Positions 21,702 to 58,400 of a DNA stretch of 64,000 nucleotides are shown one piece after another. A program made the translations under genes and the position numbers. The notes beneath the pieces were generated by a model. It saw only the letters and a program-made list of their open reading frames with translations, made no database searches and was not told where the DNA came from. The stretch is from Phoronis australis (lineage: Eukaryota > Animalia > Phoronida): NCBI GenBank assembly GCA_002633005.1, contig NMRA01000032.1, positions 1,158,911-1,222,910 on the forward strand, written 5' to 3'. Each line of letters begins with the position of its first letter. The first letter of the stretch is position 1.

Positions 21702-21760
21702 GGGCTTAAAATTTCATTTATCGCAGGTCCTCATTTCTGACTGCTGCAGAAGCGTACGAA

Positions 21761-22564
21761 ATGGCAACTTTTTATCGTCTGCTCGTCTTTGTCTTAGTCG
21801 CCTTGTTCGTGAAGAGCGTTGCTCCAAACACAACTTCTGGCGTGAAGCAGATGATGTCTTCACTATTTAAGAAGTACGAGACAGCGTTTAAACTCTACCA
21901 CGATTTTGTTGCCAAGCATTTGGACGCCAATTCCTTCGAAATTTTGCAACTGAAAAAAATGATGGCTGAAAACGAAAAAAACTCGGGGGAATTGAAGGCG
22001 AAGATGAATGACCAACGATATGAGACGAGCAAAAGACTGGCGGCATTGGAAAAGTTTAAAGATGAAACATCTCTAAAAATGAAGGAAGATGCCAAAAACA
22101 CATTAAGAAATATCGTGCGCAAATCCTGGTCTGGTGAAAGCGAAATCGGCAAAGTACAGAAACCGGGAGATTTGGTAACCATCACGGAGTTTAACAAAAG
22201 GCAAAAGTCAAGTAAACTAAAAGTGGATTTCAGCTCTTATTTTGGTCTAGAATATACCGACACAAATAATACGAGAATGTGCGCCACTTGGTCAATCCTC
22301 ATTAACGGCAAACAGTGCAAAAAGCCGCAACCAATCCAGGGGTCGATGTTTTTCGAAGGCAACTTTCGAGAACAAGAAATTGGTGTTCCTACTTTCATAA
22401 GTGGAATCTGCAACGACATTCCTGAAGGTAACGTCAACCTAACTATTAGCACCTCGAAGTGTGAGGGCAATAGTGCAAAGGACTTCCACATCCCCAGAAT
22501 AATTCGCACTGGGTTTGAAACGACTTCTTACCTTGTCGTGGAAGAACTGTTTGAAAGCCTTTGA
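21761..22564 (+). CDS. Secreted CTHRC1-like protein: signal peptide, predicted coiled coil, CTHRC1 C-terminal domain; no Gly-X-Y repeat; single exon
   Basis: 267-aa ORF; hydrophobic N-terminus LLVFVLVALFV; C-terminal motifs FNKRQKSSKLKVDFS, CATWSILINGKQCKKPQPI, ISGICNDIPEGNV, TGFETTSYLVVEEL parallel CTHRC1 (FTK..SALRVLFS; W.F.FNG.EC..P.PI; GLC.GI..G.V; TGW.S.SRIIIEEL). Confidence 0.8.
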   Translation: MATFYRLLVFVLVALFVKSVAPNTTSGVKQMMSSLFKKYETAFKLYHDFVAKHLDANSFEILQLKKMMAENEKNSGELKAKMNDQRYETSKRLAALEKFKDETSLKMKEDAKNTLRNIVRKSWSGESEIGKVQKPGDLVTITEFNKRQKSSKLKVDFSSYFGLEYTDTNNTRMCATWSILINGKQCKKPQPIQGSMFFEGNFREQEIGVPTFISGICNDIPEGNVNLTISTSKCEGNSAKDFHIPRIIRTGFETTSYLVVEELFESL

Positions 22565-29526: not shown

Positions 29527-30253
29527 ACCCTCCTAAGGTTACAGTAGAGACAGTGGTGACTATCTTTTCGAACGCCACCTCCACCCATTCTGGTGTGCTC
29601 CTTCAATTTTCTCCGTAAACACCTAAATGTGTACGTATGTTTATTCACTTACTATTCTTCCAACACAGGGACATAAAATACATATGACTGCATGGGCTGG
29701 TGTCGCGGATTTCAACGATCTTGCCAGATTTCTGCCAAACAATTCTGACTTCTGTGTAGGAAAACCTTTACTAAATTAAACTTTGGAAGTCAACATGAAA
29801 TAAGAAACAAATTTAAGGGAATTACTGTCTGACTTATGTACTCGCACTGGCGACCTTGTGGCAATTTAGAATTTTCCCCAGGTCGCTAAACACAATCTGA
29901 GGTAGCATTGGTAGCCTGCAGATTGCCAAATTGAGCACTGAATTCCCATGGTAAAAAGGCACAATGCCATTTCCCCTCCGTTAAGCAATGGCCTTGGAAT
30001 ATCGCCCAAAATGCCATGGAAAAGTTAAATTATTCTCTTTAAAGTGGCAATGATTGGTGGAATTGCCCTTACCCCACCCTTCAGAATTGAGAAAATTGAA
30101 TTCCTGAGTCTTAAATTTTGGCGACCGTCTCAATCTGGAGAATTTTAATGATATAAGAAGCAAAAGTTTGCGCGAGTGGTGCAGCAGGCAAACAAGATGG
30201 CACATGCGTAGTGTTTGCGTCTGTGAGGCTAAATGAAATGTTTTTTTTTTCAG

Positions 30254-35646: not shown

Positions 35647-37673
35647 GAACCTCTCCTCCATCTCTCACTTAACCATTTTGTAAATAAATCATTAGACTCC
35701 CACACATTGATGTCAAAATCACTCTAATATTTAGTGGAACCTGTTGGATTAACGAAAACCTGTTGCCGTTGTATTCAACGATTTTGTAATGTATGTCTTG
35801 TTTATTTCATTTCTTTATTTGAAGTTGATCTTTTGTCACTGGAAAAAACATTAAAAGCATGAAGATTTGTTTTTACGTTTGTATTTGTTTCTTCATGTAA
35901 TAAAAATATGAACTGTCACATGAAATATTGTCATTCATAAGTTTCGATAAGAAGTCGTCATAAGATCTGTAAACATTTTAAGGTTGTGGATTGTGAACTA
36001 AGTTTCTACCTGGTGAAGCATATGCTAGCACTCCATACTGCGCAGTTTTCCGTTTTGTAGAAACGATTTTGCTGTGTACCAGTCTCAACAACAGCACATT
36101 TTAAAGAGTGAATAGCACAGTGATTGGCGATTCATTTGCTTTTGCAAAACACATGGTTGGTCTCAATAAACCACTTTCAGTAATAGATTTGAGGTATCTG
36201 GTGATTAAAGATAATTAGATCCAGTACATTTAAATTACTAACAGATAGAATGTTGAATTATACAGTCAAACCACAGTATGATAAACCACTACAATGCCGA
36301 TTGCTTTTATTCCATTGCTCGACTACGATCAACGTTTGAGAAAGGTTTATCCCAGCCTGGTTACACTACCTGTTCATTGTGTAAACACAGCTGTATTCTG
36401 GAAATGCCAGAAAAGCTTGTGCAACCACATCCTCTGCATTGCAATGAACATGTGATTGTGTTTTCTAGAATTTCTTTCGTTGACTAAATACAGTCCTGCG
36501 TCAATTGAAATGGATTTATTCAATGCAGACTGTGGAAATTGAACAAGATTGGTAATTAATGGCAGATACTGGGGTCAGTAAATTCTTGTCGAGACATGAC
36601 TGATCAACCTTTGAAACATAGACCCTCATCACTGCCTACAGCAAATGCATTGCAGTTGAATATAGCACCATCCCACTGATCTTCGAGCATTAATAAACAA
36701 TTTGAAACTTGATAACCATGATTGGCACTGACTAACCAGCTTTCATTAACTGAAACTTTGTGCACAAGAATTTAATTAAAAGCCTTCGAAATATTTTTAT
36801 TATATTAGGTGCACTGAACTATCCATGTAGTTCCAGCTATACTTAAGCAACATAAAACTAGATTCTTAAAATCACTCAAAAGTTGGTATGTTGACTGGAA
36901 ATGGATTGGTGAAGTAACCTTTAAATAACATTACAAAGCCACAAGAACTTGGAACAAGGAAAGTCCGAAACTGTTGAATTGGGTTTGAAAAGTGCACCTT
37001 GTAAGGAATTGTGCCATGACGTAGACTTAAGTCCAATATGTTAGGCAACATATAGCATAAGTGTGCTCAAAGTGATAGTCAAAACATATTACAAGAACAT
37101 GATTCATTTTCATTCAATGTAGGCATGATGACCACTCATCTGAAAGACAACTGTAAACTGTCAAAAACTTGCAAATACCAACAGTCGCCACAATAATACT
37201 ATTTTGGAATCCTGCTGAATGACAACTAATAACACCATTTTCCATTTGGTCTCCTTAGAGTTCTACAAATACATATTCACGATGAAGAACTTGGGACAAC
37301 TTATTAGTAATGATTGTGTTTGAAACTTTCAGTTATGGAATAAACAAAATGGCCACTTACAGAAAACAAGTAGAAGTGATTGTCGCTAGATGAATACATA
37401 ATTGGTGTATGATCACAACTAAGCTGTAGACCTCCACAGTTCTGAAATCAGTAGAAGTTATTGCAAAATTAATATGTCATCTCATATTTAATTTCAAAAA
37501 TTTTTTTTTACCTTCCAAGTTAATGATTTACAGCTAACATCGCAAATAAGAAACTAGTCATAAGCAAATTATCCATGATTCCCTCTGGTCTGAAATTGCT
37601 CAATGATCACTGCAGACTAGTAGCTCAAAAGCACGAGAACACACAAAAGCCCCAGTGTGCACATGAATTAGCT

Positions 37674-40600
37674 TTAAGCAGACTTCAGGGCCTCGTAGAC
37701 AGCCCTTAACCAAATGGCCACAGCAGTGGCTCCAGCATCAGGTTCACTGGACCTCTGGACATCAACGTAACTGGCTCTTCCCGCTCGGCCCTGCATCCCG
37801 GCCGTTGACTGGGCACCTTTCTCTGCAGCCTGGAGTGGGAGAACAAACATATAATTATTTTAAAGATCCATTCAGCTGACTGAAAAAAGAAAATCAAACT
37901 GGGCATAAAACTCTCAGAAAATCAGTCTGCTAATACTTTCCTTCATATGTTAAAATTATATTTCCGTTACCAACTCTAGTCATATGCACCACTTTCAAAT
38001 TCGCAATTTAGAGTTGGCTAACCCTACTAAACTCTGAAGCATTTTCTCAAGTGGCGCAGCTTTAACAACCCCTCCGAAATGGACTTTATGGTTGACCACA
38101 TGGTTTTAACATTTCGCGTTAAATTGAAACCATCATGGTGCAATATGGTTGGCAAGCATGGTTGACCATGGTTGACTATGCTTCACAACCATAGTTATCG
38201 ACCACGGTTGGTTACCCACCATGGTTGACCATGCTTCACAACAATGCTATGAGACAACTTAATGCAAAATCTTAAAACCATGGTTGGCCATGGTTATCAA
38301 CCATGGTGTGAAACCATGATTGACCATGGTTAACGACAATCATTGAGCATGGTTAAATATCATGGCTGACCATGCGTACAAACCATGGGTGAACATGTTT
38401 GTTTATGGTAAACAATTGATTGACATGGTTATTAAGCATGGACAACCATGGTCATAAAGTCATGCTTATGAACTGACAGTCACAGATATGGCTAAAAGCC
38501 CACTATAAGCAAATTACCTGCTGAATTTCAAATGAAATGTCTCAAGATCGTCAAATTATTAGCAAGGTTTAACTCACTAAAGAGTCTCAATTTGGACTTG
38601 AAATATTGAAAACAAGTGTTCGCACTCTACATAATACTTATATTTCTTCATTTACATCTGGACACAAAGATAGGAACAACAACAAGAACAATTGACTCTT
38701 TGTAATGTAATGCAGCAAATCTAAACTTGAAAAANNNNNNNNNNNNNNNNNNNNNNNNNNNNNNNNNNNNNNNNNNNNNNNNNNNNNNNNNNNNNNNNNN
38801 NNNNNNNNNNNNNNNNNNNNNNNNNNNNNNNNNNNNNNNNNNNNNNNNNNNNNNNNNNNNNNNNNNNNNNNNNNNNNNNNNNNNNNNNNNNNNNNNNNNN
38901 NNNNNNNNNNNNNNNNNNNNNNNNNNNNNNNNNNNNNNNNNNNNNNNNNNNNNNNNNNNNNNNNNNNNNNNNNNNNNNNNNNNNNNNNNNNNNNNNNNNN
39001 NNNNNNNNNNNNNNNNNNNNNNNNNNNNNNNNNNNNNNNNNNNNNNNNNNNNNNNNNNNNNNNNNNNNNNNNNNNNNNNNNNNNNNNNNNNNNNNNNNNN
39101 NNNNNNNNNNNNNNNNNNNNNNNNNNNNNNNNNNNNNNNNNNNNNNNNNNNNNNNNNNNNNNACTGGGGGGGGGGGCGACCCATGTAAGAGTGTTATTGG
39201 CATTGGATAGGATTTTACCTATAATTCATTGTGAATATGACATATCGTACACTGATCACAGCCCCAGAGGCACCCAATGTAAAGTTCGAAATTGGGTCGA
39301 TGAAAATGTACCCTCTTTCACGATTATGGTATCAGAGTGATACTCGTTTTTCACAATTTTAATTGGGATAAGTATGATACGCTTTTTTCAGCTGCGTCTC
39401 TAGAACGTAATTTCAGTCCACTAAGGCAAGTTTTCCTCCTGCTGTCTGTCGTATACAGCTTTTAGCGCCTTAAAAATTTTTGACTCCAATTTCAAAACTT
39501 CTTTCTTTGGTGGATAACCCTTTACTTACTGACTCCAAATACGTCAGTCGCCACATCCGGCACAAAGAATTTTTGAAATAAAAAAAAAATAATTTTGGTC
39601 CCAAAAAGGACCCTTGCTAGGTGGGTCACTTCATGGGCCACTGCAACCTTAATTAGTGGGCTGATCAAGCTGAAACTTGGTGGCTGACTATTTGAAAGAT
39701 TGGCCTTGCAAATAAAAACAGAAACTTTAAAATCAAAGACAAAAAGTTTTTCGAGTGAAAAAAACCCTAAGCCTACAGTCCAGGATTTTTGGGGGCCAAA
39801 AAATTTTTTGTCTCCAATTTCAAAAATTCTTTTCAAACGGACATAGAGTGTTGAAAAACTAAAGCCCACGAAATTTGAGTTCGATTGGATCATTAATGAG
39901 GTGATGCGGCATGATCAAAGTTGAAAAATGTCATTTATAGACCCTTTTGCACATAAAAAAATTTTACCTCGGTTTCAAAACTTCTTTCTTTGGTGGATAG
40001 CCCTTTACTTACTGACTCCAAATACGTAAGTCGACACTTCCGGCGAGCCCTAATAAGCTAACAGCAGAGGATCAAAATTGGAAAATTGGGGAGTCTGTGA
40101 CTTTGACCTTAAACCTTGACCCCTAACCAGATAGGGGCCTACAAATACGACGCATTTGAAAACTTGCTCTTTACCATAATTCAAAAATGTCTCGCTTTGG
40201 TAGTCTTCAGGTCATTGGTCATGAGGATATGATTTCCCAAACTAAAGCTAATTTTGACACAACTTTTCTGATACTGTGATGGCGTTGGTCATTTTGGGGT
40301 CCCTCCCGGGTGCTTACTAAGGCCAAGAAAAGTATGACACTTACATTTCTAGAGAGGAGAGACAGGGGGCTATCAGGGTCAGAAAGAATTTTTGGGTGAG
40401 TCACTTGGTGGGCCACTGTGACCTTAATTAGTGGGCGATAAAGCTGAAACTTGGAGGCTGACTATTTGAAAGATTGGCCTTGAAAATAAAAACAGAAACT
40501 TTAAAATCAAAGACAAAAAGTTTTTCGAATGAAAAAAATCTAAGGCCACAGTCCTGGGTTTTTTAGGGGCAAAAATTTTTTATCTCCAACTTCAAAAATT

Positions 40601-43600
40601 GTTTTTCAGATGGACGTAGAGTGTTGAGAAACTAAAGCCTACCATTTCCTAAACGTCGAGAATTACTGGAGTTACATCAGCAGCGATTCAAAGCCATGTC
40701 TGGAGTGATTGACAATAGTCTGGCAAGATACCTGGATGAACAGATGTGGCGGGAATGGTACGCAAGTATAGCGGTGGACACATTTACCAACATCCTAATT
40801 CATCTGTCTCAGTTGCCACAACACCACACACAATGAGAATAGCCATGAAGAGAAAACTTCTGGAAGATGAAGGAGTTTCCATCCCTCCCAAAAATTGAAA
40901 CCAAAAAATAAATAAAAAACAAAAACAGGCCCTAAGCTGGGCCTTTAATATAAAAGTAATGAACCTCCCTCTGTTGCCACTCCCTGTATAATAAAGATGC
41001 CCACCGAGCTCATCTACAGTAGTGTAGCTAGAATTATCAGTGCCAGGGGGCAGAAAACGACAGTGTCCTCTCTGTCGCTACCAGTTTGAAGCCCAGCCCC
41101 TTTGCCATTCAACTGGTGCCCCTCCCGTCGCCACATATTTGATGCCCACCCCTGGTCGACACCTGTTTGCCTTCCAGGTCTGCCTGGGGCCCCTGCTTGG
41201 CTGTCGCACGCGCACAAGTGCCCCCCTGCCCCACTCTCGCTACGCCACTGCTCATGCATGTAGATGGTTTCTGTATTGCAGATCATGGCATGTAAAATGC
41301 GGCCAAGCGTATTTGGGCTTTGTTGTTTTGGGGTGGCAACTGATAGTTTTACTCGTTTTTTTTATTTGTCCAATTTTTTTCCTAACATGCCTACATTTTT
41401 CACTATTTCTGCCCCAAAACGGAGGGGGTGGGCAATTGCCCCCTGCCCCACAATACGCCTTTGAATGCAGCGCACATAAATTTTGTCTATGGGGTACCCT
41501 TACCTCTTTGGCCTTTTTCCAAATCCGTACCAACAACAATTAAATCACTTATTCATGCACATTCCGTATCATATATTCACCTCAAAATAATATGCACGTC
41601 TCTTTCAAATGTGTATGACTTAACGGGCACACATTCATATTTGTACGGTTAGTTCACACATTTTGATGCTAAGCGTCCTTGACATAGCACCTGAATTCCA
41701 ATGGCTTCCGTGAAGAAACGATAGATTTCTGCTCCGTAACGTATGTGAAGGTTGGCGTTGAATTTTTAGAAGGTAGAAGCTCGAATTGAAACAATTTTAG
41801 CATAGTAGCAAAGAGTGAACAATTACAAATCCATTGAGGTATATATCATCCATGTGTGACCCTTCTTGTGGAAGACACGAAGGATTGAATAGGGTCTGAA
41901 TAGGGACACTGAAACGATACTTTTACCCAGAGATGGATCATGCTTAATCTATCTAACCTCCACAGAATCAGTTTCAACTTCCTTTTTGCTTTTAAGACCA
42001 AAACTACTTATTCATGACTGAAATGTAGTGTTACTTAGCAGTCATATCAATAAACACACAATGTTGAAATCAAAACTTACCAGTTCAATTCTTCACAAAT
42101 CCAGAGTCCTTGCTCAACCAGAACCGTTGAAATTTGAAATCCCTGTGAAAGGCTTGTACGGTGGCCAGAAAGAGTCATCACTATTATAGTTTAATTATTT
42201 TTTATTTTTCCTTTTTCACCTAAGTAGAAATTATTTTCACCGGGGTGGAAATTATTTCAACCTAAGTGGAAATTATTTCAACCTAAGTGGAAATTATTTT
42301 CACCAGGGGGAAAATATTTTCACCACAGGGGAAAATATTTCCACCTAGTAGGTGGAAATTATTTTCACCAGGGGTGAACCTCTTGAAATGTTTATTTCAA
42401 ACATGTGTTAACAATTGGTTGTCAAGGTTACATTCCTGGAAAGTAAAATACCCAAGCCTACGGGAGGCCAGAAAGTATATCGCTATTTTAGTTAAATTAT
42501 TCCTCTATTTTTCCTTTTTCACCTACTAAGGTGGAAATTATCTTCCCCCGGTGGAGTAATTTCAACCTAGGTTGAAATAATTTCCACCCGAGTGAAAATA
42601 ATTTCCACCCGGATAAAAATAATTTCGACCTAGGTTGAAATAATTTCCACCCGGGTGAAGATAATTTCCACCTAGGTGAAAAAGGAAAAATAAAAAAGAA
42701 ATTAAAGTAAAATACCAATGATACTTTTGGGCCACCCTCGGCTAGGGTATTTCACTTTCCAGGAATGTAACCTTGCCAACCAATTGTTAACACATGTTTG
42801 AAATAAACATTTCAAGAGTTTCAGTTTGCTGATAACACTCTAAGGCAATTCAACATGTAGATGAGATAGCATAAAATAAATATTTGGAAAACCCTTAGGG
42901 CATTAACAGCTAGGAAGAAGATAATCAAAGCTTCAGTAACTACCAAATGATTTTGGACAATGCATGTGTAAAGATATTTTAAGAAATTTGTAGGTATAAC
43001 TTTCTGTATGTCAGTCTAACTAGTTACATGTTGATAATACACACACATTTGTTTAGATTTAGCATATAATTCAAACAGATCAAATATACTTCATGTGGTT
43101 TTTGATGTCAGCCCTGGAGTTCTGCGCCTTCTGCTGTCACGGGCATGGTCTGGGGTGGGGATTAATGCACCAGCATATCCCCAATGATCCTGTCCGTGAC
43201 AGGTATTACAGGTATTACAGGGTTGTTTTAGAACAATCACATTTAATGAATGTTACTGACTTTCTTATTCAGTTTAGGTGCTCCTGGCCACCTATCATAA
43301 TAATTCAATGACCACATTCATTGTTTGTATTTGACAAATCCAATTTTGGTCAACATTTTGCATTTCATTTAGTAGGGCCAGGCAAGACACACACTATTTG
43401 CTGTTACTCTCTGTTCAAGAGTGTCATCTTGTAAATAAGATCTGTTAGTTGGCATGCGGAATGATTCAGTCCTGGGGCAGAATTGTGAAGTGTAGTCCAT
43501 TTTTATTAACCCTTTCAAAGACAGTTTTCTATGTATTTATTTACAGTAAATCTCACAAATTTTGGACAAAATTAAGTTCCAAAATATGGCAAAAATATCT

Positions 43601-46600
43601 GTAAACATTATTTGGTGGCAGCTATGGTATCAAATTAACAAAATAATGATAAAACAATAATTTAGTGCTACTTAATTTTTAATTAAAAATAAAATTTTAC
43701 ATAGCTGCCATATTGTCTTGAATTGTGAGATTCAGTGTACGATTCCATCATTGAAAATTATTACTTAATAATATCATTTCATAGATTAGCATTCTGGTAT
43801 TTACATGTTCTTTAGCTAAAAATACTAAATATCACCTTTATCTTTCAGCTGGTATTTACTATGGAAGCGAAAGCACAAACTTTTCAAACACGTATTATGT
43901 AAAGGGGCTTGGCCAAAGCCGAGTGATCGAACCATGTTTTAAGTCAGTTATGCAGTTTGTAAGCATACTTGGTGGATACCATGGTTCATATTGCGAAGAA
44001 CCACGGTCATGGATGGTTGTTCGCCTAAATGGAAAATGTGACCATGGTTGATAGTTTTTAACCATGGTTGACCATGGTCAAAAACGTAGTCAACCATGGT
44101 TCTCCAACTCTAGAAAAAACAACCATGGTTGACAATGGTTTGACCACGGCCGACCATGGTCAAAAGCATGGTCAATTATGGTTGTCTGTTTCTAGAAAAG
44201 GCAAACATGGTTGATAATGGTTTGACCATGGTTGACTATGGTCAAAAGAATAGCCATGGTTGAATCATGGTTGACCGTGCACAACCATGCTTATACATGG
44301 TTAACCGCCGTAACATTTCGCAGGGGCATCCTCAAAACAACTGGTGGACTACATTATGAATCTGCAACTTACAATTTTTAACATCGGTCAAAATACATAA
44401 AAGCAATTTAAGTTATCTTTGAAGCATTCGTTCAGTCGTTTTTACATTTTTTGCTTTTTTTAGTAAAAACAATCCTCAAAATAAATCAAGTCATAACATC
44501 TATCAATAAAATATTTCAAAGAAAATAAGACAAATTGATCTGAGTGATCTTCATTTAACAAACAATTATCAAACTTTTGAAGTCACACATTGCGGTAATT
44601 CAGTCATCCCGAAGTTGTAAACTGGAATAGATCAAGCTAGCAGCAGTGAATCTCATTGTTAAAGAAATCAATGGATTCCGTTTAGTCCATGATTTAATAA
44701 TGTTTAATTAGAAACTTGCAGTGTCAACCAAAACCATAGTCTTCAAAGACAGCACTGCTGTTTAACCTCTATTTAACAGACAGCCTCAGTTTCAAAATGT
44801 GAGCTGTGAATGGAAACTATTAGGCCTTACCTCAACAGCTTGCAGTAGGGAATCTAGTGGGGTAGACGAGGGTAATGATTTTGACAACGTGTCTTGCACT
44901 GGGCACAGAGCATCCAACTGAAAAAATGTGAGGAAAAGTCAAGACAAATGTCCACAACACTCAGATGTATCTTTTCACCACAAAATCTGAACCCTTGCTT
45001 TCAAAACTACAACAGATATGTTAGGTCTTCTTAGACACAACTTCAGAATTGTTTCAAAGGAGCTCTATCAACACCACAACACACAACTGCAGACACCCTG
45101 TTTATGTTCTGGTTCTCTCGGGTCACTTCAACCTTGGGAATATGTCAGTAATTTTTCTGACTTTAAATCAATTCTGCTCATGCCAGTAATTCCGAAAAGG
45201 CTCCTCAACTCCCCATAAGCGTCTCTGTTGAAAAATCTACCATATTTAGGCAGAATCTATTACACTAATCTGTTTGCACAGCTTCAAAAATATTGAAAAC
45301 CAGAAAATATTAAATGAAGGCTAAACATTTTGTGAAATATGCAGCATAACAAATGAGATTTAAAATACCACCAAATTTGAAATCCTGGCCTTACAGAAAA
45401 ACAAACCTCAAATTTTACTGTCTTCCATTAAAGTAACACTGTCCATTAGAAAAGTGGTTTACTGAGATCAGCCGAAATGTGGAATCTTATTCACAACCTC
45501 AGAGATCACAGTGGCATCAGTGCTGTTTCAAAGAACTTCAACCTATAAATGGCAGTCTTTTAAGCGTGTTTAACTGGTTAAGTCACCAACCTTGGTCTCA
45601 CGGAATGTCTGACAAACAACGAGAATTGGCAATTGGATACAAAATCACAAAAACACAACGCATTTTGTTGCTTTATAGCCCAGATCAAAGCCGACAGCTT
45701 CAAGAAGTGTACCCCATCCAACATTAATGTCAATTTTGTTTTCAGATATAACATGGATAATTTCCCTTTAACCAAATGTAAGCAACAAGCTCGGTCTACA
45801 AAACGTCATCTTCCCCTAGCATTCACATCCAACGTGCAAACAAACTCCCTCACCATCCCAATAAGACAGGACAACCCCTAGCATACCCATCCAACGTGCA
45901 GACAAACTCCCTCACTATCCCAATAAAACAGGACAACCCCTAGCATACCCATCCAACGTGCAGACAAACTGCCTCACCATCCCAATCAGACAGGACAGTT
46001 TCCTTTCATCACTTACCACTGTTCTGTCCCCTGGCTCCGCTCCACCATATCTGTGAATGACGTAAGGTGATATTTGTTACTTTAAGACTGAACTGTAGTA
46101 AAGCAAACCCTTTCTTGGGTTTTCTACCCGACTTTATTGTAACCAAATCAACTAAGAAAGTGTGTAGAGCAATTGACTTGGGACTACTCGAATGGAAACG
46201 GCAAGCGAATGTTATACAGGAACGCTTTTAACTGTGCCCAGGTGTGAGTCTTGTGATGATACTCGATTGACGTGTTAGAGACATTGCCTCGATTCTCAGA
46301 CAAGCTCAATGTCATGTATTAGTTTGTAATTCTGGGAAAAGGTAGACTAAAAAGTGTTATCGATAAATAACATGAAAAGGCATTATGGGACAATAAGATA
46401 TAAGCTTACAGCTAGAATACAAATTAATTTAACTTGTACACAAAATTAAACATGAAACTGCAAACAAATTCACCCAACATCTGCAGACAATTGTTATCTG
46501 TTGATTGATAAATATCAGTATACATACATATGCAGAACAATCAGGATACATTTAGTAAACAAGAAACTTTTTGACAATCAAGGGTAGAGTTCATGAATTG

Positions 46601-49600
46601 TAGTGTTGAATTTCTTAAATATTTCTATCAATAATTGCTTACTTCACTTCAGAGACCCTGGTTTTCTGTGGTAATGCAAAACAGACGGAATTCATATACA
46701 GTCAAGTGACCTAATTATCGGACATTTTGGCACATTTTGCATTATATTTAATTGAAAATACTACGGATTGTTGTAAATTTTTTTCTGAAATAAAGACTTA
46801 CCCTCACGGAATTGTTCTGTTATTATATCTTGTCACTGAAAGCCACATTTATGTTCCGACTGATCTTTAAAAAACCCAACAAGCAAACCTTCGGAGAACA
46901 TAAATATCGGACACCATGTTCCCCATACGCCACACCGCGGAAAACTGACTAACCACGTAATGGCCGCGGGCACCTTGTAGCCAAATTTCAGCTCAAGTGT
47001 TTTGACATATATGCTGCTAGAACACAGGTCCATTCGCAACAAAATTATCCATAAAATGAAATCTGATGACGGCGCCAAGTCGTTTCGATGAATTAGTGCA
47101 GACGGCTAAAGCACGTGCAAACTCACTGCAGTTTTTAGTATCAGTTTGGCTTCTTGATATGACACCCGCACGTGCGCGGTCGGGGTTTGACTTGAGTTTA
47201 AAAACAAATGAAAAAATGGAACAGTGCCATATTTTCAGTTCAATGAGATGGTTTCATTGTGGAAAAAGATTTTGTTTTCAACTTTTATAACCGATTTATG
47301 CGATCATCCATTTTAGGCCAACTTGTAGGTCTAAATTGCACCCTCTCTCGTGAAATCAAAACGAGACAACGCTGTAAAAAACGAGACGGTGCCGGACATT
47401 GAATGCATTACAACGGAACAAAAATTGGTGTCATTTAATTCTCAGATTATGCTTCAAGTAAGATTCTATGAAATGTCCGATATTTAGGTTCCGTCCGATA
47501 ATTAGGTACACTATGTGTAGTCTGATTTCCTTCAAGGAATTTGAGTTTATGAATGGAATTGACATATTTCTGAAGTAAATGCACTAATTTTAATATTTAA
47601 TTATGTGACATCATCTCGCATGTGAGTTTCATAACCCTCAACACATATGGGATACAACCATGAAGCTGAGCTCCATGGAGTAAAATGAGTGCGTAGCTTT
47701 CATGGCCTGAAATCACGGCGTGTAGCAATTTATTGCTACAATGATAATGCAAAGTATTTCAGTGGAAAAGTAAGACAATTACCAATTATTTTTTTTACGT
47801 TTTATCACATTAATCATTTACAAAATGAAAAAATATGTTGGTTACAATGAACTTCTCTGTTTTTTGCAAACCGAAAATCAGGGTCTCTAGGTCAAAGCTA
47901 AACAATCACTACAAAACTTCATCCTTTTTTATTAACAACAGTTTTAACCAGTAAACAGGCAGATGTTCATTCACAAGGGCCCAAAAATGATGCAAGCAAA
48001 GTTAAATCTACGCATTAAAAAGTTCTTGGATGACCATCACTTAAAAAATCAGTCACCAAACTGCTAAGAGCTGCCATACTGCAGTATACCTAATGAAAAC
48101 AAAATGGCAGCACTGACTAAATACAAATGTGCTGACAGTAGTTCACGGTACATGTACCTCTGTATGGCGCTAGTGCCCGCCTGGAGAGCGTGTAGCCAAT
48201 ATATGGGAGACGTAGAATCGTGAAGAGGGTTGGCAGCTGCCGTTAGAAATAAGCTGTAGATCTGAAGCAAGAGAAAGAGGCCTCACAGAAATATTCAACT
48301 AATGTAAACAACTCTTTTGTAGCTATATGACGAAGAAGGTAAATCTGAAACTAATGATTGAGGTGATCCAAATCCTTTGAAGGATACTACTGTTTGAAAA
48401 ATGTAGAATATATATATGGAAATAAAACAACAATAATGGATCAACTGAAATTTTTGGATATAATCACATCCTTCGTCAACAGAAACAAAGGATGTAATTA
48501 TATCTGAAAATTTTACTCGATCCATTATTGTTGTTGTATTTACATTATAGGACGATCGCCGCACAAATATGCTATGTAATGTTAACTTCGTGATTATTTT
48601 TCAGGCAACACTTTGTAAAATTTTGAAACTGACCCATGTCTAGATCATATGACAGTGTAATCCTATGAATCTAGTTTGCATAGCACCAGAACTTGGGCAG
48701 CTAAAATTTTGTCTACATATTCAAGTACCAGCTTAGGCAAAACAAGAGAAAATTCACGATATCATTATTACTGGTTTTATTACTGTTAGCATAGTAATGT
48801 TAGTATTGTAGCAGGACATAAAGCATTACATAAGCAGATGACTCACACCACCAGATGTCCCACCCATCACATTCTCCACAATATTAGCCAATGAAATCAG
48901 CAGGTTGAATGGTTGTAACACTGGCAGAGTGGGTTTGTCCTCTGCACCAAGCTCCATCTGGATAGCTGAAAAAGAAAACAAAATGCACTGCAGTCAACTA
49001 TGAGGTGATTGGTTGAAAACATCCACCTAGATAATATTAGTTTTGCATTGCACTAACACACTAAATGTCAATTTTAGAAAAGACTACTTTGAAATAATTG
49101 GCGTTACAAAGAATGATGCAAAAGTTAGACATGGTTGAAATTAAATGATTCACATCTCATCAATAATTAGGTGGATTTATTTTATTAAAATTCTGCAATC
49201 TTGGTAACAAGAATTAATGTGCTTGTTTGACTTCAAAAAACATATTCGATAAGTATCTCAAACTATGCATTGACTAGAATCTGTTAATGCTGATCACCAC
49301 ACAATTCACCCAAGTCACTTAATCATCGTGTTCTTTGTTTAACCCCCTAGTCTCACCTGTTGCCCCAGCCTTCAGGGTACTACCACAGTCCCCATCCCCA
49401 CACTCGCGGTCCAACTGGTTCAGTAACTTTTCATTGTTAGTAAGGGCAGTGCAGGCAGAGTGCAGAGCCTTGAAGATGAGACAAGAGGTGGCTAGAAAGA
49501 GGCAAATATCACATTAAGAAGACATCCCAAATCAGAGATGAGGAAAAAAACAGTTACAATTTGAAAACCACCAAACTGCCACAGCAACATCAATGTTGGA

Positions 49601-52600
49601 TAAAGTAATCATTATAAACAACAGTTTTCAATGAAAACAAACATTTTTTCTTCCCCCCTCACAAACCCAAATGGCTTTCTAATCAACATCTCCCTTCTAG
49701 GAACGCGACTTTTTATCATAAGTTGTATTTTCTTCTCTTGGTATGATTTGCTTCCTCATGAACGACAGTACCTTTCATTCTCTAATTGTGGACAGAATTT
49801 GTTGAACACAAAGCAGTGTTCAATGTTAAGAATTTTCAATGATATTTGCCCAAGCTCTCTGTATCTTTGACAACCTTTCGCAGCGCCACAAAGCAGATGG
49901 CCTAAACACATAAAAACTGATGTTAAAAGGACAGCTATATTCCAAGACTGTACGTGTCTCATTATCAAGCAGAAATAAAATGTTGTCTGAACATTTCTGA
50001 ACCTTTGTCAACTGTAGCAGCATTATCGGACGTAGCTTTTAAATCGGCAACAGGCGGTATGTCCAGCGGTCCCAAAGACAATCGGTCAGAACTAGATACA
50101 GGTAAGTATGGGCGGGGCCAAGCAGGGGCATCGGTTGGAGCATCTGAAAAACATAAACAACTTCTGAAGCAGTCAGGACACAGAAAAAATTTAGTACATG
50201 CTAAATAATTTGTCGTGACCAGCACTCCACGATTCATTCAAATTTATCTTATCAGTATGTCGTATCGCGAAAACTTCATTAGTGTAAAATTTCACCAATT
50301 AGGAAATAGTATGGCAAAGAAGTAAAATTTCATTTTTCATAAAAGGTAGCACAAAAGAAATGCTTTATCATTTTTAATTGAGTTCTGTACCATTGCTGTC
50401 ACCAGCCAAAGTTTTGAGAAATTGTGGATGATCCCAACAATGTTAAACGCATTTAAAAATGAAAAAAAAAACAATTTTTTGCAATTATTTTTGTCCAAAA
50501 TTGACAACATTCTTCACACTATATTTGCGATTTGCACTTGATTTAACTAGTCAAAACTACTGTCATATATTTACATAGTTCTGAAAATGAGAAGATTAAT
50601 TCTGAATATTTTTTAATTATGGTACCCTATATCAGAAATAAAAAGTCTATGTTCAATCTTAATGTCATAAAATAACGAAATTACAATTTAATATCGTGAT
50701 TCACTTCATTCTCCAATTACTCGATCCTACCAAGACATCTTTTCCTCACGTCGTTCAACTGCATCACAGTTATAGACACACCCGCCATTTCCATCGACGT
50801 GATGAGAGGTCCACTGTAGCAGCGGTCAACAAACACACCCATGCTTTCTACAACAAAATAATGTCAGATATCACTTACGGTAAGACCTGCACAAGATATC
50901 TCGACTAAAAGTTCTGTACAAACAAAAGCCTTCTGACGAAATGACCCAAAAATTCCACATCATGGCACCGGCTGGGCAAAAGGCAAATCTCCACAGCAGC
51001 CTTCTCTCATGACCGAGTATGTGAGAGACTTAACAAGAACGTTACTAAGATGACTAAGTCATTCTGTGATTAGAATTTTACTGCCTTGCCCACCTTTTTT
51101 GCTGTTAACATAATTAGCCGTCATGACGCGAAAATGGAATTTTGTCCGATTATTTTGGTCTTATACTGTAAAAGCAGGTTACTAATTTGCAAACTGTTAG
51201 CAAAAAAAAATCAATGGACCATTTTTGCTGTTTCATGGACTGCAGCTGCGTAGGACTTCTGTTCTGTTATAGTTGCAGTGGGTAAATAAGACATTAAGTG
51301 TAAATTTCACATTTTGCATGTTTACAACTCACTGTTTTCTTGATTTACATGACATGTAGTTTTAACTCTAAATTTTCAGGCTTGGTTAGAAATGAATGCT
51401 ACATAAACTGAGATCCAACTTCTATTGGAACGCTCTTTTATGAAGACCTGTTTTGTTAAAATGTAAACTGAGGAAAACAATATTGCAAGTATTGCAGCAA
51501 CTGAATGTAAATATGAGAGTAAGCTACTTAAATGTTATACAATGTGAATCTTATTGTAACTAGTAAAGTTTGCTAGTAATGTACTCAATTATGAGAAATT
51601 TAATGTTATTGTAGACTTAAGCCAATAATTCAAACTCACAAACAAGCAGCAAAGAATGGAACGACCTACCAAAATAGCAGATGGCCTCTCTAGCTATGAT
51701 GTTCAGTTCCAGATAGGATGTACCCCCCAGGTTGTTAATGAACAATGCCACATGGTCCCCCTTCTGTACCCTGACGTGAGACGGGCTCTCGGTATTGGTC
51801 ATGTGACTAATCATGGCTGCCACAACTTCTTTGGCAGACATGACCTGGGGAAGTAAGATTACAGAATAAGTCAGGGCAAAATACCACACTACTGAAGCAA
51901 CAACTTAGACTACTATGTGTAAAAAATTAAATCCTTCATGAGTCATGAAGCTCTTCAGTACCGGTATCATGAGTAGATGTGCATGTTTCAACTCAGTCCC
52001 TCTGCATGGGACGCTTGTCCATCATAGGTTACTTTCCAGTCATGGCTGGCATTCAGTTTTACACAAGTTGGTTGGTGCAACATATATCAAGTACCTCGCT
52101 CAAGGACATGTAACTCCACAATGACACACAAGAGTAGAACTCGCGATTCTCATAGGAATGTAGCGTGTATCACTCAACTGAAACTCAACTGCCAATGCAT
52201 GGTTTCAATGTGACTTATTTATATTTTCCCCAAAACTATCAGTGTGCTGGTCAAAATTAATGAGCTTCTCAATTGGATAGTTTACCTTTGTACGTTTAAC
52301 GCCCGCCTCTCCATGAAGACCCAGACCAAGCTCCATCTCATCAGGTCCAAGCTGGAAGGAGGGCCCGTCTGAGCCAGGTAGGGTACATGGGGCCAAAGTC
52401 ACACCCATCGTGCCTGGAAAGCAATTAATGTACAAACCATATGAACCACTGTATCGCAATTTTTCTTTTTACCGGTTCTCTTTTAAATAATCTCCAATAT
52501 TTGAGATAAGAGGCAATATTATTGAAGATAAAAATCAATAAATCTAGTCACTACAACCACGTTCAACACTGTGGACTAAGAAATCATGATGCTATGACAA

Positions 52601-55600
52601 GGACAGCCATTATCTGGTATGGTCATTATCCCATTTTTGGGGTCACTCCAAAACACTTGGCAGGATAAAACAATTGAAGGTCTGGTACAACAGTTCCTAT
52701 AAACAGCCGTGAGGTCAGCAAAGCAGAACTGACTCTGGTATGTTGAAAACTGATGCACTGAACGTGTAATATCTCAAGTTGTTCACTTTTCGAAAAAAGA
52801 ACATCAGCAAAAGTAGCAATTTTTTCCTCATCCAAACCGGCTTCAGTGATGCAATTCTCTAAGGAGGGGTGGGTTGCGACACTGGTACATGTGAGCCCGT
52901 GGTTGAAACCAATTTGTAGTCATTAATGACCAATCCACTGCTAGCTTGACAAGCCAGGGTGTTTAATGCCTTGTTTGACAACTTGGCTAATATTCCTGCC
53001 GGCGTTTTTTTTTTTTAGTGGTGAGGATCAGATTTCAAAATGAGTCATACCACAGACCAGAACAAGCTATGCTTATTTAACTTAACTTTAAATTCAAAGC
53101 CAAAGTCACAAAATTTCATGAGGTGCTTCCCTCGTGATGTATCTCTGCAAAGTTGTGGAATACTCAGATGATTAAGACAAGAATTCAGAGCTTCCACAGT
53201 TACCAATTTTTCAATCTTTCAAAAAAGAAATTGTAAGTTACCAGTTGGGAAAATTATTGCAGGGCAACATGTGGAGTGAAATTTCTACCTGTGACAAAAC
53301 TCCCAATGCAAATATAAAAATCGGTTACCCATTTCATTGATCGCTTCATTACACAATTTCACGATCTCCTCCAATGATCGACCTTCTTCTGCCAAAGCAC
53401 CTGCAATCTACAAGAGACAAGATTTTCAATACCTCATTCACACGAGCATTTTTATCAATGACTGAACCAGACAGCGCATTAATGACAAGTATTCACAAAG
53501 ACATCTCATCAAATTTGTTAGGACCAGAATAAACATTCAGTGCACTGCTTCACAGTGTTCTAGCCATCACATTCTCAAACAAAGTCTAACCAAACGATAC
53601 ATCAATGAAATTTCTCCCATCAGCGATGATTAGGAACACCTGTCTGATAATTTCATTGCTTATCATCAGATCTCTGAATAGACGTTTTAGAAGCATTTCA
53701 CAACCAAAATATTTTTCACACGTCCAAACAGACCTTGATCTATACAGGGTGATCAGACATGCTGATGTGAAAGTCGTCTAACTCTTGATAAAGAAATTGT
53801 GTTTGAGAAGTTAAAAATGTCCAAGTCTAATACAAACCTCATGAAGTGTATGTCTGGTTTTTCAATGATTCATCTAAAGCCACGCACAGCCCCATACCAA
53901 AAAATAATGTGTAAGGACCTCTGGAGACATTTCTAGATCATTTAGCAATTTTAAAGCAGCTATCGACCTGCCAACCACAAAAATCTAAAATTTGTTTTAA
54001 ATGTCTAAAAGTTACAAAATTGGCCCTGACTTGTACCTTACCAAAGTTAGATTTGATTCCTGAGCTTGTAAAAAAGACTCATAGTTTGTTCTTGTTTGAG
54101 ATCAGACTCAAAATGATTGCTTGCCACAATGAGTCATTTTATGCACCAAGCATAGACTGACACGGACAATAACATAACATCAGAGCCAATACCCGAGAAA
54201 CCACTTCTCATAACTGTAGGGAACAAGTGGAGTCCAGTTTTATGTTGGTAGTGGTCGGAAGCAAAAGTTTGTTTCTTTGATGGAACAGCGGTTAACAGAA
54301 GCTTTAAGTTTTCACAATAAAACGATAAACTGAGTGGAGTTGATTGCCTCTGCAGCTAGTTTGACCACCGCAGACTTGACTGATTTCAACTGCGAACCAA
54401 AAACTTAATTTTTTGCTGCTGTATGTTGTGTTGAAAGATAAAGTATAGGAAGCTTTTAAACAGAAAGTCACCATCACCATGCCTATAGTAGAGCTACAAG
54501 CTTACCAGCGTGTGTATTGAGCAAAGCGTGCAGCAAAAAGAAATGGCATTGCCAGTAAATCCTTGGTTAGGTTTCAATTAGGAAGCAGTACAAAGCTATC
54601 AATTGAGCACAGCCATCAAAAAACAAGTTCGCAAAATCCAAAAGGCTTCAAATTTTGCCAGATACAGAACAGTTGTCACTCACTATACTACCAAAGAAAT
54701 TAAATGTTCAGTGTAATATGACTATGATGTGACGATGGATCATTTATTAATATTTGGCATGCATGGTATTGGTATCTCCACCTTTTGGACTAGTAGTACA
54801 CCACAGAGACCCCGGCGGCCAGCCGTTTTGTCACGGGTAGTCAGGGCACAGTCCTCGCCCACCACCACCATGTCTACTTTGTAACCCTCATTCTCAGCCC
54901 GTTTGTTGGCGATGCCGAAATTGATTCTGTCGCCAGTGTAGTTTTTTATAACAAGTAAAGTTCCGGCTGAAAATAGATGCAGCACCACAGTATGTTGATA
55001 TCTACTTCACCTTTAACAGCGTACAGTTATTAGAAACAACAAAGCAAGCTTTTTACAAATAATCCACTACGCACATCATTATAAAAACTCATGTTCAAGT
55101 ATGGCAGAAACCTTTCACCCGATGACAGTGGACATGGCGTGCTCGTTACAGATTTGGAAACCAGACGTCATTTATAGCAATGAAACGAAGTGTGACAATG
55201 AACAGTGAGCGCAAATTGGTCAGAAGAGATAACAACAGGTGCTTATTCGCACCACATTGTTGATGCACTGGGAGATTAGAGTACTTCGACAGCAACGTGG
55301 CACTATCAGTCCACTGCCCACATTAACTACAGCACTAGCAAGTTGCAAAAGTTAAAGAGCAAAAAACAATTCGGGGGATTTCCCCTGTTGTGCTTCTGTC
55401 GTTTTTCAAACGCATTGAGACGCTTGTCCGGGCTTCTAAACATCCAGTGGCATCACAGATAACTTGGTGACGTGTAAGTAATATGACACAGAACAACACT
55501 AACTTATCACTTGCGAGCATCTGAATTGAAAGCACGGATCCAATGCAACATGATTTTTGTGCAAGTACAATAAAGCAATCATAGTAGGAAAATAAATAAT

Positions 55601-58400
55601 TGTGAATGAGCCACGAAATGCATTAAATACTTAATACGTAAATGAGCAAGTCTTTTGTCCAAAAATTCATGATACATGTGTTATCCTACCACACTGAAGT
55701 CAAATCTCAAAGTCTAAAACCCAAATTATGAATCAGGTAAAACATCCATAACAAGCCATATGTGACTTCAGGATGTTTACAAGTCTGCAACTATCCCACA
55801 ATGCATCAGAAAAATGGCAGCAGTGCTGTAGGACAATCTAAACATGGGGCTAAAACACTGAACTTCAGCGCTATCTCAGAGTGAAGAAGTTGTGCTTGAC
55901 TGCGGTGACGGGCTTAGCAGAGCAAGTGGTTTAAGGCAATACATGCGGATTCAGTAATTTGAGAGGATTTTAGCACCTAGACTTATGCAGCGTCAACAAC
56001 TTGTAAGAAAGCACAACAACTAGTTCCCATCGTGATCACAAGGCATCTCACCTTCACCATCACCGCTTGCCCTGCTAAACCCCGCCTCCCTGCCACTTTA
56101 TTTGAGATCACAGCACAGTCATCCGCTAATGTCACACTTCCTATGCGTAGACCCTGAGAACTGGCCCGCTCTATGGCTCGGCCAAATGTGAGTCGATCGC
56201 CAGTGTAATTGGGGATTATTATGAAAATCCCCGACTCTGTCAAAAGGAAAGATGTACGTTTGTATTCAAACTCAGGGATTCAACAAATGAACATTTTGCC
56301 TTGACAAGGGCAAGTTTGAGTTTGAGACATAATTTAATCTGAGAAAATCTTTTTTCCCCAGCACAACTTTTGAAACGGATGCAGTGAGAGCAAAGTACAC
56401 AAAACTGAATTATGGCAATTACTATCAGTAGTCCTTCAATGTGTCACTTGTGCATTGGTAAAGGGGTTGAGCACCAAAGCATACTACTGGTTAAATTTAG
56501 GCTACATGTCTTATACGTAAATTTTAAATGCTTTTACAGAACATTTCTAGCAAGCTATTTACTTCGAAACAAAAATTTCTGGATCAGTTTCAAAGGATTA
56601 TCATTGAATATAAATTTGCTTTTCGCACTGTTAAGCTGGCTAAAAGCAAAAAAATCAAATTAGGCCTTTAACTCAGTCTCATAAAAATGTTCTCATAATA
56701 TTCCTCACTGTGACAGGATTTCATTTCCGTTACCAACTCAAGTCACAGGTGACGCATACAAGCTCCATTTTCAAATTTACAATTTTAGGGTTGGCCAGCT
56801 GCAACCCACCAAAAATCCAAATTGTTTTCTGAAGTTGCTGATCACGTTTTTGATGTTCTTGTTGGTAAAATAGAATCCCATCACAGTAATGAATATTACG
56901 AGATTGATTTTATGAGAGTAAAAGAATTAAATTGATTTTCGTTATTAGCCAGCTAAATAAGACGAAATGTAACATTGACACTTATTCAGCACCAATGAAT
57001 ATCACAACCATGGATGCACATGAGAGCAAAATCTGAAATGTGGAGTTAACTGAAGTCTCTGTTTATAATACTTATCCAACATGAACAAAACTGCTTAAGG
57101 CCAGGTGTTTTGTGACTTGTGATTTCAATAGGACTGATAAGACTACCGCTATGCTGAACTCGTCATATAAGAAAAATACAAGTTATGGGTCAATTTTTTT
57201 GTTTAAAGATTGTTCTTAAATGCCAGTGAAGAATCTTACAATGCCAAGAGATTGTTGGGCATCTTGATGACAACATTAGGAGACGGGCTGGATATTACCA
57301 ATATTACGGTTTGCAAACCATAGTGCGATTGGCTGTATTGTTCACGAAAGTCACACATCAACATTCCTGCAGAGATCCTAACCACTTCACTATTGACACC
57401 AATTGTGTTGTAGGCCTCTCATGGGGGTTTGTTACCAATAGTAGTAATAAAATGTATTTGATTAACTACAAACTGTCTTCCATAACAAAGACACGCTACC
57501 TGACCCTCCTACAGCATGAATGGCAGCCAACACAGCACTCGGTGGTGGCGATGCAAATATCGAGCCAGCGATGGCGCCACTAAGCATACCCTTGCCCACG
57601 TAACCTGCAAAGAAAGCCTGTCAGAATCAGAACAATGCTGTGTCAATTATTGCTCATCGCTTATTCACAACTGTCACTCATGCTCTGCATGTAAAAACTG
57701 GTCGCTATGTATAAACTCCAGGGGGCCTGATTCTTGCTGAATCTATTGGTTTATGTTTTTTGGACTTTCGGCTAAAAAACACTCTACAGATGGCTTAGCC
57801 TGTTTCCTGAAGCAGGCTATAGCTGAACACGAGAAAATCTGTTTACCAGTCTTTACCACTCAAACTCAATAGACAGAAATCTGTATGGATATTCGTAGTC
57901 AGATTTCCAACTTTTAGCTCAGTCAAAAGACAATAGCCTCTTTGAGAAACGGTACTTGAAAGTGACAGGTGATGTTGTAACTCAATCCTTTACCATATTC
58001 AACTTCAGTGTACCACAGATAAAATCAAGAAAATATTTAAAAAATTGTGGGCATTCACAACAATGTCAGAAGACATGAAAACTTTTAACAATTATTTTTG
58101 TCCGGAATTGGAGAGAGCACAGCAAACGAGGAGACAATTCATAAAGTGAAATCTCAGATTACAGTCACTCATAATTTTCACACATTGCAGCAATACGTCA
58201 CCTGCATGTGCAGGTTCATGACCAGAGCCACCTCCGCACAGTACAGCCACCTTCCCAGCCTTCCTGGCAGCATCAGCATCGCCGCGCACAACAACACGAT
58301 GTCCCTTCAGCAGACGAGCTCCGGGATTCACAAATACGTGACCTTCAAGGCTTTCATCTACGCAGCGTTCCACACTGTTTATGAACTTCTTGGTGGCCAT
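37674..58400 (-). CDS. TKFC: Triokinase/FMN cyclase (dihydroxyacetone kinase, DAK1+DAK2 domains), 587 aa
   Basis: Minus-strand exons 58400-58202, 57604-57500, [56236-56052 or 54966-54782], 53407-53329, 52413-52286, 51844-51670, 50847-50731, 50143-50003, 49491-49357, 48965-48847, 48261-48158, 46050-46017, 44917-44831, 37829-37674 (1764 nt in frame). Motifs [59 protein letters not shown]. Alternative in-frame ATG at 58406. Confidence 0.95.
38735..39162. other. Assembly gap (428 N)
   Basis: Run of n characters. Confidence 1.
39480..40642. repeat. Internal direct duplications inside the composite element
   Basis: ~39490-39562 matches ~39972-40045; ~39622-39868 matches ~40393-40640 (GGGTnAnTCACTT...ACTAAAGCC). 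Confidence 0.85.
40652..40815 (+). pseudogene. Frameshifted Merlin/ISXO2-like (IS1595-family) DDE transposase C-terminal fragment
   Basis: NVENYWSYI / [27 protein letters not shown]...[10 protein letters not shown] matches the N.IE..W..K....G.....L..YLDEF.WR pattern of Merlin transposases. Confidence 0.7.
41017..41250. mobile_element. hAT-type MITE nested in the composite element
   Basis: TIRs CAGTAGTGTAGC / GCTACGCCACTG; 8-bp flanks CTCATCTA / CTCATGCA. Confidence 0.7.
42158..42823. mobile_element. Foldback element with ~21-bp GTGGAAATTATTTTCACC repeats
   Basis: 42377-~42550 mirrored by ~42650-42823 (CTCTTGAAATGTTTATTTCAAACATGTGTTAACAATTGG and its reverse complement); a partial extra arm at 42158-42375. 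Confidence 0.8.
45812..45997. repeat. ~62-bp tandem repeat, 3 copies, next to the donor of TKFC exon 46050-46017
   Basis: CCCTAGCAT..CATCCAACGTGCA(A/G)ACAAACT..CTCAC.ATCCCAAT..ACAGGACA three times. Confidence 0.9.
46699..47517. mobile_element. Tc1/mariner-type MITE (TA TSD)
   Basis: TA|CAGTCAAGTGACCTAATTATCGGAC ... GTCCGATAATTAGGTACACTATGTG|TA. Confidence 0.7.
52040..52190 (-). mobile_element. Decayed tRNA-derived SINE-like fragment
   Basis: Reverse strand reads ...TCGCGAGTTCTACTC...TGTCCTTGAGCGAGGTACTT, resembling a B box followed by the TGTCCTTGAGCAAGGCACTT block common in SINE2 elements. Confidence 0.35.
54782..54966 (-). CDS. TKFC: TKFC exon 3b (canonical-type exon, KNYTGD)
   Basis: attttcag|CC...AAG|gtggag; 185 nt, phase 1 to 0; [61 protein letters not shown]. 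Confidence 0.88.
56052..56236 (-). CDS. TKFC: TKFC exon 3a (divergent paralogous exon, PNYTGD)
   Basis: ttttgacag|AG...AAG|gtgaga; 185 nt, phase 1 to 0; [61 protein letters not shown]. Confidence 0.8.
56634..56954. mobile_element. MITE with ~70-bp TIRs (related copy at ~19025-19320)
   Basis: AGCTGGCTAA..AAATCAA..TCTCATAAAA..ATATTC mirrored by GAATAT..TTTTATGAGA..TTGATTTT..TTAGCCAGCT; the same right arm occurs at ~19256-19320. Confidence 0.7.

Follow-up and report, generated by a model that had tools for sequence, protein, structure and literature searches.

Mutually exclusive exons of a phoronid TKFC gene, with and without the KNYTGD lysine, and the same exon swap in bivalves

The window analysed here is a 64,000-nucleotide stretch of DNA from Phoronis australis. 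On its minus strand, running from 58400 to 37670, lies a gene for TKFC, a member of the ATP-dependent dihydroxyacetone kinase family, which has 14 coding exons per isoform and two homologous versions of the third. The Lys of the KNYTGD motif is present in one version (exon 3b) and absent from the other (exon 3a). The locus therefore raises the question of whether these exons are genuine alternatives in RNA, and if so what the exchange does to the enzyme.

Gene layout and either-or splicing

Both versions lie between exons 2 and 4, with 3a upstream of 3b in gene order. The features of the gene are as follows.

58202..58400, minus strand: coding exon 1, with the ATG at 58400; joint 57602-58200 seen in RNA.
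57500..57604, minus strand: coding exon 2; its donor at 57500 is joined to 3a, to 3b or, rarely, to exon 4.
56052..56236, minus strand: exon 3a, alternative, PNYTGD; Thr, Asp and AGRRGL kept; reads in X3.
54967..56051, minus strand: spacer intron of 1085 nt between 3a and 3b; no listed read joins 3a to 3b.
54782..54966, minus strand: exon 3b, canonical, KNYTGD; junction reads in X1, X2 and X3.
53329..53407, minus strand: coding exon 4, with the common acceptor at 53407.
52286..52413, minus strand: coding exon 5, shared; GLHGE, whose His aligns to the triose-binding His.
37670..51844, minus strand: coding exons 6-14, shared; L domain with GDGD, RAGRASY and EPDAGA.
51844-51670, 50847-50731, 50143-50003, 49491-49357, 48965-48847, minus strand: exons 6-10.
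48261-48158, 46050-46017, 44917-44831, 37829-37670, minus strand: exons 11-14.

An assembly gap of 428 bases (38735-39162) falls within the last TKFC intron. The remaining genes noted in the window are on the plus strand. An intron-containing HSP90 gene (30233-35153; Pfam HSP90 2e-49) stands tail to tail with TKFC. A 284-codon open frame at 21710-22564 carries a CTHRC1 C-terminal domain (6.8e-14; atlas lead 0.84), with a signal-peptide-like start and a coiled-coil-like middle, but no collagen stretch is evident. A large protein with spectrin repeats has exons at 1414-10301 (Pfam Spectrin 1.2e-6 at 9918-10298), and a hydrophobic stretch near 14700 leads us to guess that this gene is nesprin-like.

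The two exons of the original prediction are borne out at the coordinates given above: each is 185 nt long, bounded by AG...GT, and runs from phase 1 to phase 0 with an open frame, and the two share 27 identical residues over 60 aligned pairs and are separated by 1085 nt. The splice sites of exon 3a look strong (TTTTGACAG / GTGAGA). The predicted frame arithmetic is equally sound: including both exons leads to a stop after codon 169, inside 3b, and including neither ends the frame in exon 4, after codon 120, while either exon alone gives a protein of 587 residues. In both isoforms the K and L domains are fused, and GHEP, the triose-binding His, GDGD and the Arg/Asp motifs of the C-terminus are all present. 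The best NCBIfam match for both exons is TIGR02361, and the family-model score is lower for 3a (61.7 bits) than for 3b (81.5 bits).

Splicing was followed in three stranded RNA runs from one study (X1, X2 and X3), labelled as the same species, of each of which about 18-19% was read. Read counts are small, the tissues are not stated, and a junction needs at least 3 reads to be listed. In the order X1/X2/X3, the reads number 8/2/9 for exon 2 to 3b, 6/0/10 for 3b to exon 4, 0/0/7 for exon 2 to 3a, 0/0/3 for 3a to exon 4, and 0/0/3 for the skip from exon 2 to exon 4. All four junctions by which the switch was to be checked are thus found in X3. In total, X3 has 10 reads for 3a against 19 for 3b, X1 has 0 against 14, and X2 has just 2 reads at these exons; read depth in the bin over 3a is 0, 1.24 and 9.5 respectively. 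At this low depth and listing threshold, no joint of 3a to 3b is listed in any of the three runs. A fourth run (X4, contigs) yielded repeat fragments only, with nothing useful at the locus.

The junction reads place both forms between the same flanking exons and support the proposal of mutually exclusive splicing, with one exon per productive mRNA. For the same reason exon 3a is not an assembly or haplotype artefact, and that explanation was rejected. There is one TKFC gene with two full-length spliced forms, whose proportions differ between RNA samples (X1 against X3, Fisher p 0.018 on reads and 0.031 on distinct starts). For each isoform 12 of 13 junctions are confirmed in RNA; the last, 44831>37829, lies outside the RNA-covered stretch and is a predicted one. 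Among 22 exonic read differences, a selection from a larger number, 18 are synonymous, including the one in 3a.

Exon choice would be set by splicing factors that depend on tissue or condition, and the frameshifted transcripts that include both exons or skip both would be cleared by nonsense-mediated decay (NMD); both steps are likely. NMD fits the frame arithmetic of the two aberrant products, and the simplest account of exclusion is regulated exon choice together with NMD. RNA pairing, which had been put forward as the other possible enforcer, finds no support, there being no conserved intron block in a (distant) comparison with the clam-like contig L003. A search of the introns for a docking or selector helix returned only short imperfect inverted repeats outside the repeat-like elements. 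The longest inverted repeats, at 56616-56972, were considered as a docking helix and set aside, as they resemble a small repeat element. Reads from both strands and loose ends mark this stretch and a second one at about 55417-55789, the two lying in the introns that flank 3a; these short inverted-repeat elements are likely to be small transposon-derived repeats.

The exon pair in bivalves and the origin of exon 3a

Public gene models contain isoform pairs differing in this exon for 13 bivalve species of 10 genera, namely Mytilus californianus, M. trossulus, M. coruscus and M. edulis together with Mya, Pecten, Argopecten, Ylistrum, Mizuhopecten, Mercenaria, Dreissena, Ruditapes and Sinanodonta. 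In eleven of the 13 pairs the two proteins match completely outside the exon; M. edulis is represented by two records, and the Mizuhopecten forms start differently. Lys is constant in one form of each pair. In the other form its place is taken by Pro in Mya, Mercenaria, Dreissena and Ruditapes, Thr in Mytilus, and Ala in the scallops and Sinanodonta. Examples are XP_052768316/317 (Mya), XP_053373186/193 (Mercenaria) and XP_052272515/517 (Dreissena), all under generic database names. The Lys column separates 8 of the 8 bivalve exon pairs that were aligned. Both copies occur in a single model in Pinctada and Mytilus edulis, with the Lys-less copy first, and the same order is seen in the clam-like genomic contig L003, where exons 1 and 2 are followed in turn by a Pro exon and a Lys exon, these two lying in the same intron. 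It is worth adding that exon 3a alone as a query gave 3 matches among 38 candidates, none of them a bivalve alternative exon, and that an alignment query was needed to recover these.

The alternative exon had been proposed to be old and selected, with its decay or absence in relatives as the observation that would speak against this. The bivalve isoform pairs and the low ratio between two clam-like Pro exons (dN 0.205 against dS 1.96, the latter near saturation) support the proposal: relatives keep the exon, and the Pro exons are under purifying selection. Between the window's 3a and a clam-like Pro exon, pN is 0.30 and pS 0.88. In all, 30 protein clusters were examined, the large ones by their listed members, so that absences are at the level of annotation. 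At that level no alternative exon is seen among the listed members from Tegillarca, Gigantopelta, Haliotis, Pomacea, Tubulanus and Owenia, nor among those from Asterias, Antedon and Branchiostoma, the named coral and anemone isoforms, or the Ptychodera X1/X2 pair.

Whether 3a and the bivalve alternative exon are orthologous is harder to decide. The window TKFC protein is at best 58% identical to the stored proteins with which it was compared, and two trees agree in placing it outside the bivalve clades but differ on where it belongs. A quick tree puts it loosely with Owenia and the deuterostomes (support 84); FastTree assigns it to a group rich in molluscs (99), which is nested in a lophotrochozoan group (98). 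The protein P0318 is its weak sister (85). In a tree of 63 exon columns, 3a goes with most of the bivalve alternative exons, at an unstarred 85/84 and on a long branch (1.02), and the Pinctada alternative exon is on the opposite side. Forcing 3a and 3b into one clade costs 9.68 log-likelihood units, with p-AU 0.126, and is therefore not rejected. With the Lys column masked, the profile score toward the bivalve alternative set is +9.0 for 3a, the 7th of 60 rows, against -28.6 for 3b. Convergence is a real confound: across the protein tree the Lys state shifts 11 times, and a Lys-less protein placed within the clams looks as if it were derived from the Lys exon. Orthology of 3a with the bivalve alternative exon is accordingly favoured by these comparisons but unproven, and a single origin of the alternative exon is somewhat more probable than repeated ones.

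Lysine and lysine-less states in the wider family

The original prediction has the Lys and Asp of KNYTGD lining the dihydroxyacetone pocket of DhaK-family kinases. It is correct that 3a has Pro for Lys and keeps the Asp; loss of the Lys is, however, common in the family and not peculiar to 3a. Among 198 stored motif-bearing proteins of at least 480 aa, in a redundant and query-enriched set, 81 have a residue other than Lys at this site, which accommodates at least nine other residues. On this count the KNYTGD Lys is neither invariant nor family-defining. Intact stand-alone Lys-less genes are found in oysters, lancelets, hemichordates, echinoderms and bacteria, and the lancelet TKFCs retrieved are all Lys-less (9 cluster members listed). 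The proteins P0318, P0321 and P0314 are animal TKFCs of the Pro type from stand-alone genes, and wherever the sequence covers that part it reads GHEPAF. Plants have Lys-type plus Thr- or Ala-type DAK copies (grass models P0195 and P0196; L010, L013, L027 and L030).

Stand-alone genes that have lost the Lys have usually also lost the His located four residues after the GHEP His. In a thinned set of 78 proteins that excludes the alternative isoforms, both residues are present in 45, neither in 31, His alone in 2 and Lys alone in none. An independent-pairs test of Lys against His found 5.4 of 6 pairs in the same direction and none opposite, with a borderline median p of 0.0625. At bacterial loci, 1 of 77 Lys-type forms is without that His (L085), and 9 of 10 Lys-less forms keep it. 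The His+Pro forms are intact bacterial genes, several of them in sugar-uptake or catabolic clusters.

Two further gene layouts hold the same pair of states in animals. Oysters encode the Lys and Thr forms in separate genes that are about 68-70% identical, the Thr genes grouping with an oyster Lys gene; this gene pair is possibly two splice forms split between duplicates. The pairs are P0147/P0268 in Magallana gigas (XP_011445176, XP_011445175) and P0077/P0205 in Crassostrea virginica. In coral-like contigs (n=5, two apparently one locus), a Thr/Gln exon of about 165 codons lies directly upstream of a Lys/His exon. These tandem first exons are:

L004, 4274-5547: coral-like tandem first exons.
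L007, 345-1612: coral-like tandem first exons.
L005, L011 and L015: coral-like tandem first exons.

Separate coral genes for the Lys and Thr forms had also been considered, an idea dropped once the contigs showed tandem first exons. The upstream copy has a GT donor at its end in 4 of 5 contigs; that of L011 is apparently out of register at its end, and both this copy and the one in L015 look damaged or diverged. Two contigs are long enough to show shared exons downstream, to which the Thr/Gln first exon would be spliced; the protein set analysed holds no full-length coral Thr/Gln protein. The tandem exons share 57 and 54 of 62 residues in the segment, yet the Lys column differs, and the coral-like Thr exons are conserved (dN 0.048, dS 0.58). 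They are apparently an independent route to the same two states. That one dichotomy is held through three gene layouts suggests selection for having both forms.

A clue to substrate comes from bacteria, where one His+Pro kinase gene lies directly upstream of genes for a TIM-family protein and a D-erythrulose-4-phosphate isomerase. A cassette of this kinase, TIM-family protein and erythrulose-phosphate isomerase serves tetritol breakdown (PMC10733421, PMC13753588, in the parts of these sources available). In a comparison aimed at a LerK/DerK-like erythrulose kinase function, the isomerase adjoins 1 of 7 Pro-type loci, or 1 of 10 when all Lys-less loci are counted, and none of the 77 Lys-type loci, a difference that is not significant (Fisher p 0.08 and 0.11), and the remaining Pro-type loci have other neighbours or are on short contigs. 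This is a weak hint that the Lys-less state is linked to tetroses.

The substrate pocket and related splicing switches

The numbering K104/D109 of E. coli DhaK, used in the original prediction, agrees with the match to chain 4lrx, whose first residue is 98. D109 aligns to the Asp of the exon and K104 to the Lys of exon 3b, and we take K104 to contact dihydroxyacetone. In human TKFC, His221 and Thr112 are tested kinase residues, and His59 and Asp114 are proposed ones, according to the available part of a 2026 review (PMC13663913), whose section 4 does not name the KNYTGD Lys among the kinase residues; the available text of PMC4661931 and PMC6429413 likewise has nothing on it. The spacing equates Thr112 and Asp114 with the T and D of NYTGD, both kept in 3a. 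A change on the kinase side is likelier than one on the cyclase side, because the cyclase chemistry is mainly in the shared L domain (PMC13663913, same part).

The Pro isoform of Mya offers a structural comparison, the model being of the Mya protein and not of the window animal's. It scores 583.5 against TIGR02361 (glycerone kinase), above the cut-off of 574.95. It is modelled with the DhaK/L kinase fold at pLDDT 90.9 (Foldseek 1un8, E 1.6e-38), and Pro111 ends the strand 106-111, the exon's first. The exon would encode a strand and a helix at one wall of the K-domain pocket. Exon 3b would bring the Lys that is presumed to touch dihydroxyacetone, and 3a would drop its side chain along with co-varying neighbours, leaving the pocket looser or wider. 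On balance we consider it probable that the 3a protein is a working kinase whose triose pocket differs in affinity or in the range of substrates. This reading is favoured because Thr and Asp are kept and because the Mya Pro isoform folds as a kinase and passes the family cut-off.

A bolder reading is put forward only tentatively. TKFC may have an undescribed two-state pocket, Lys (with His) against Lys-less, both states having been kept repeatedly in animals as a pre-bivalve exclusive exon, coral tandem first exons and oyster genes; the Lys-less state would then be a different enzyme, with a wider pocket for four-carbon sugars such as erythrulose. If this were true, these animals would have an entry route for tetroses or polyols controlled by splicing.

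It is rather unlikely that 3a gives a form with weak or no kinase activity, acting as a cyclase only or as a regulator that dilutes the kinase in heterodimers or retains the inhibition of MDA5 by the K domain. The replacement by Pro is drastic, and no other copy in the set has diverged as far as 3a. In human TKFC, substitution of His221 abolishes the kinase and largely keeps the cyclase, the L domain alone retains appreciable cyclase activity, and the K domain alone remains able to inhibit MDA5 (PMC13663913, in the part available). Against this, 3a retains the Thr and Asp, the lancelet TKFCs retrieved are uniformly Lys-less, and the His+Pro forms of bacteria are intact, some in sugar clusters as described above. 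Since Lys-less TKFCs are common as stand-alone genes, 3a probably does not encode a dead enzyme.

We regard as unlikely the view that the isoforms share their substrates and differ in stability, regulation or partners through the surface helix and loop, the Lys change being incidental. The clean division of the aligned bivalve pairs by the Lys column argues against it, as does the difference in that column between coral-like tandem exons that are otherwise nearly identical. About half of the exon's residues do differ, many of them in the helix and in a loop modelled with low confidence (residues 144-146 of the Mya model have pLDDT under 50), and the wide range of residues at the Lys site fits an incidental change. 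In human tandem duplicated exons, moreover, ligand-binding residues are mostly conserved between copies (PMC9741552, available in part). Finally, a decaying duplicate spliced at noise level would agree with the lack of 3a junction reads in X1, with the equal numbers of skip-both and 3a-to-exon-4 reads in X3 and with the long 3a branch, but is very improbable given 3a in 10 of 29 single-exon junction reads in X3, an open frame in which the sole listed read-supported difference is synonymous, and the excess of pS over pN against the clam-like Pro exon.

The two isoforms are identical save for a 61-residue pocket segment, and comparing them would cleanly address both the role of the Lys and the substrates of Lys-less animal TKFCs, two points on which the literature consulted, part of it partial text, is silent. 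The switch is real, expressed, widespread in bivalves and apparently undescribed, although the bivalve forms already exist as database models. No description of the exon pair is listed in searches of the openly available main-text literature, with the top 12-20 entries covered for the larger result sets. The pair consists of homologous adjacent exons with the same phases, intact splice sites and common flanking exons in RNA. The bivalve TKFC isoforms swap the same exon, in the same order where both copies are seen, and the window protein lies outside the bivalve clades.

Vertebrates swap exons one step earlier in the pathway, with KHK, which acts upstream of triokinase in fructose breakdown, and the KHK-A/KHK-C and PKM1/PKM2 isoforms differ kinetically. 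Both of these pairs are, like that of TKFC, tandem exclusive exons by the ligand site of an enzyme of sugar metabolism (PMC9741552, available in part). In KHK the exon's one ligand-contacting residue is the same in both forms (same source), whereas in TKFC the residue presumed to contact the substrate differs. The main text of that paper does not mention TKFC. Human TKFC is the same two-domain K/L enzyme and is alternatively spliced with a tissue bias; its intron-17 isoform X8 has a truncated C-terminus and has lost both activities, whereas in the window TKFC a K-domain segment is exchanged at full length (PMC13663913, PMC11506722, both available in part). The intron-17 variant is the only splice variant described in the available part of PMC13663913.

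A close likeness is to exons 6a/6e of COQ-2 in helminths, molluscs and annelids, which are also two homologous internal exons, used either-or, that remodel an enzyme core; there too the choice between a single and a repeated origin is left open (PMC7434440, in the part available). The COQ-2 switch concerns a different enzyme and has been tested genetically, whereas the TKFC pair is known here from sequence and RNA reads. Beside COQ-2 and MRP-1 (PMC7434440, same part), TKFC would be a third case of invertebrate metabolism tuned by exon swapping.
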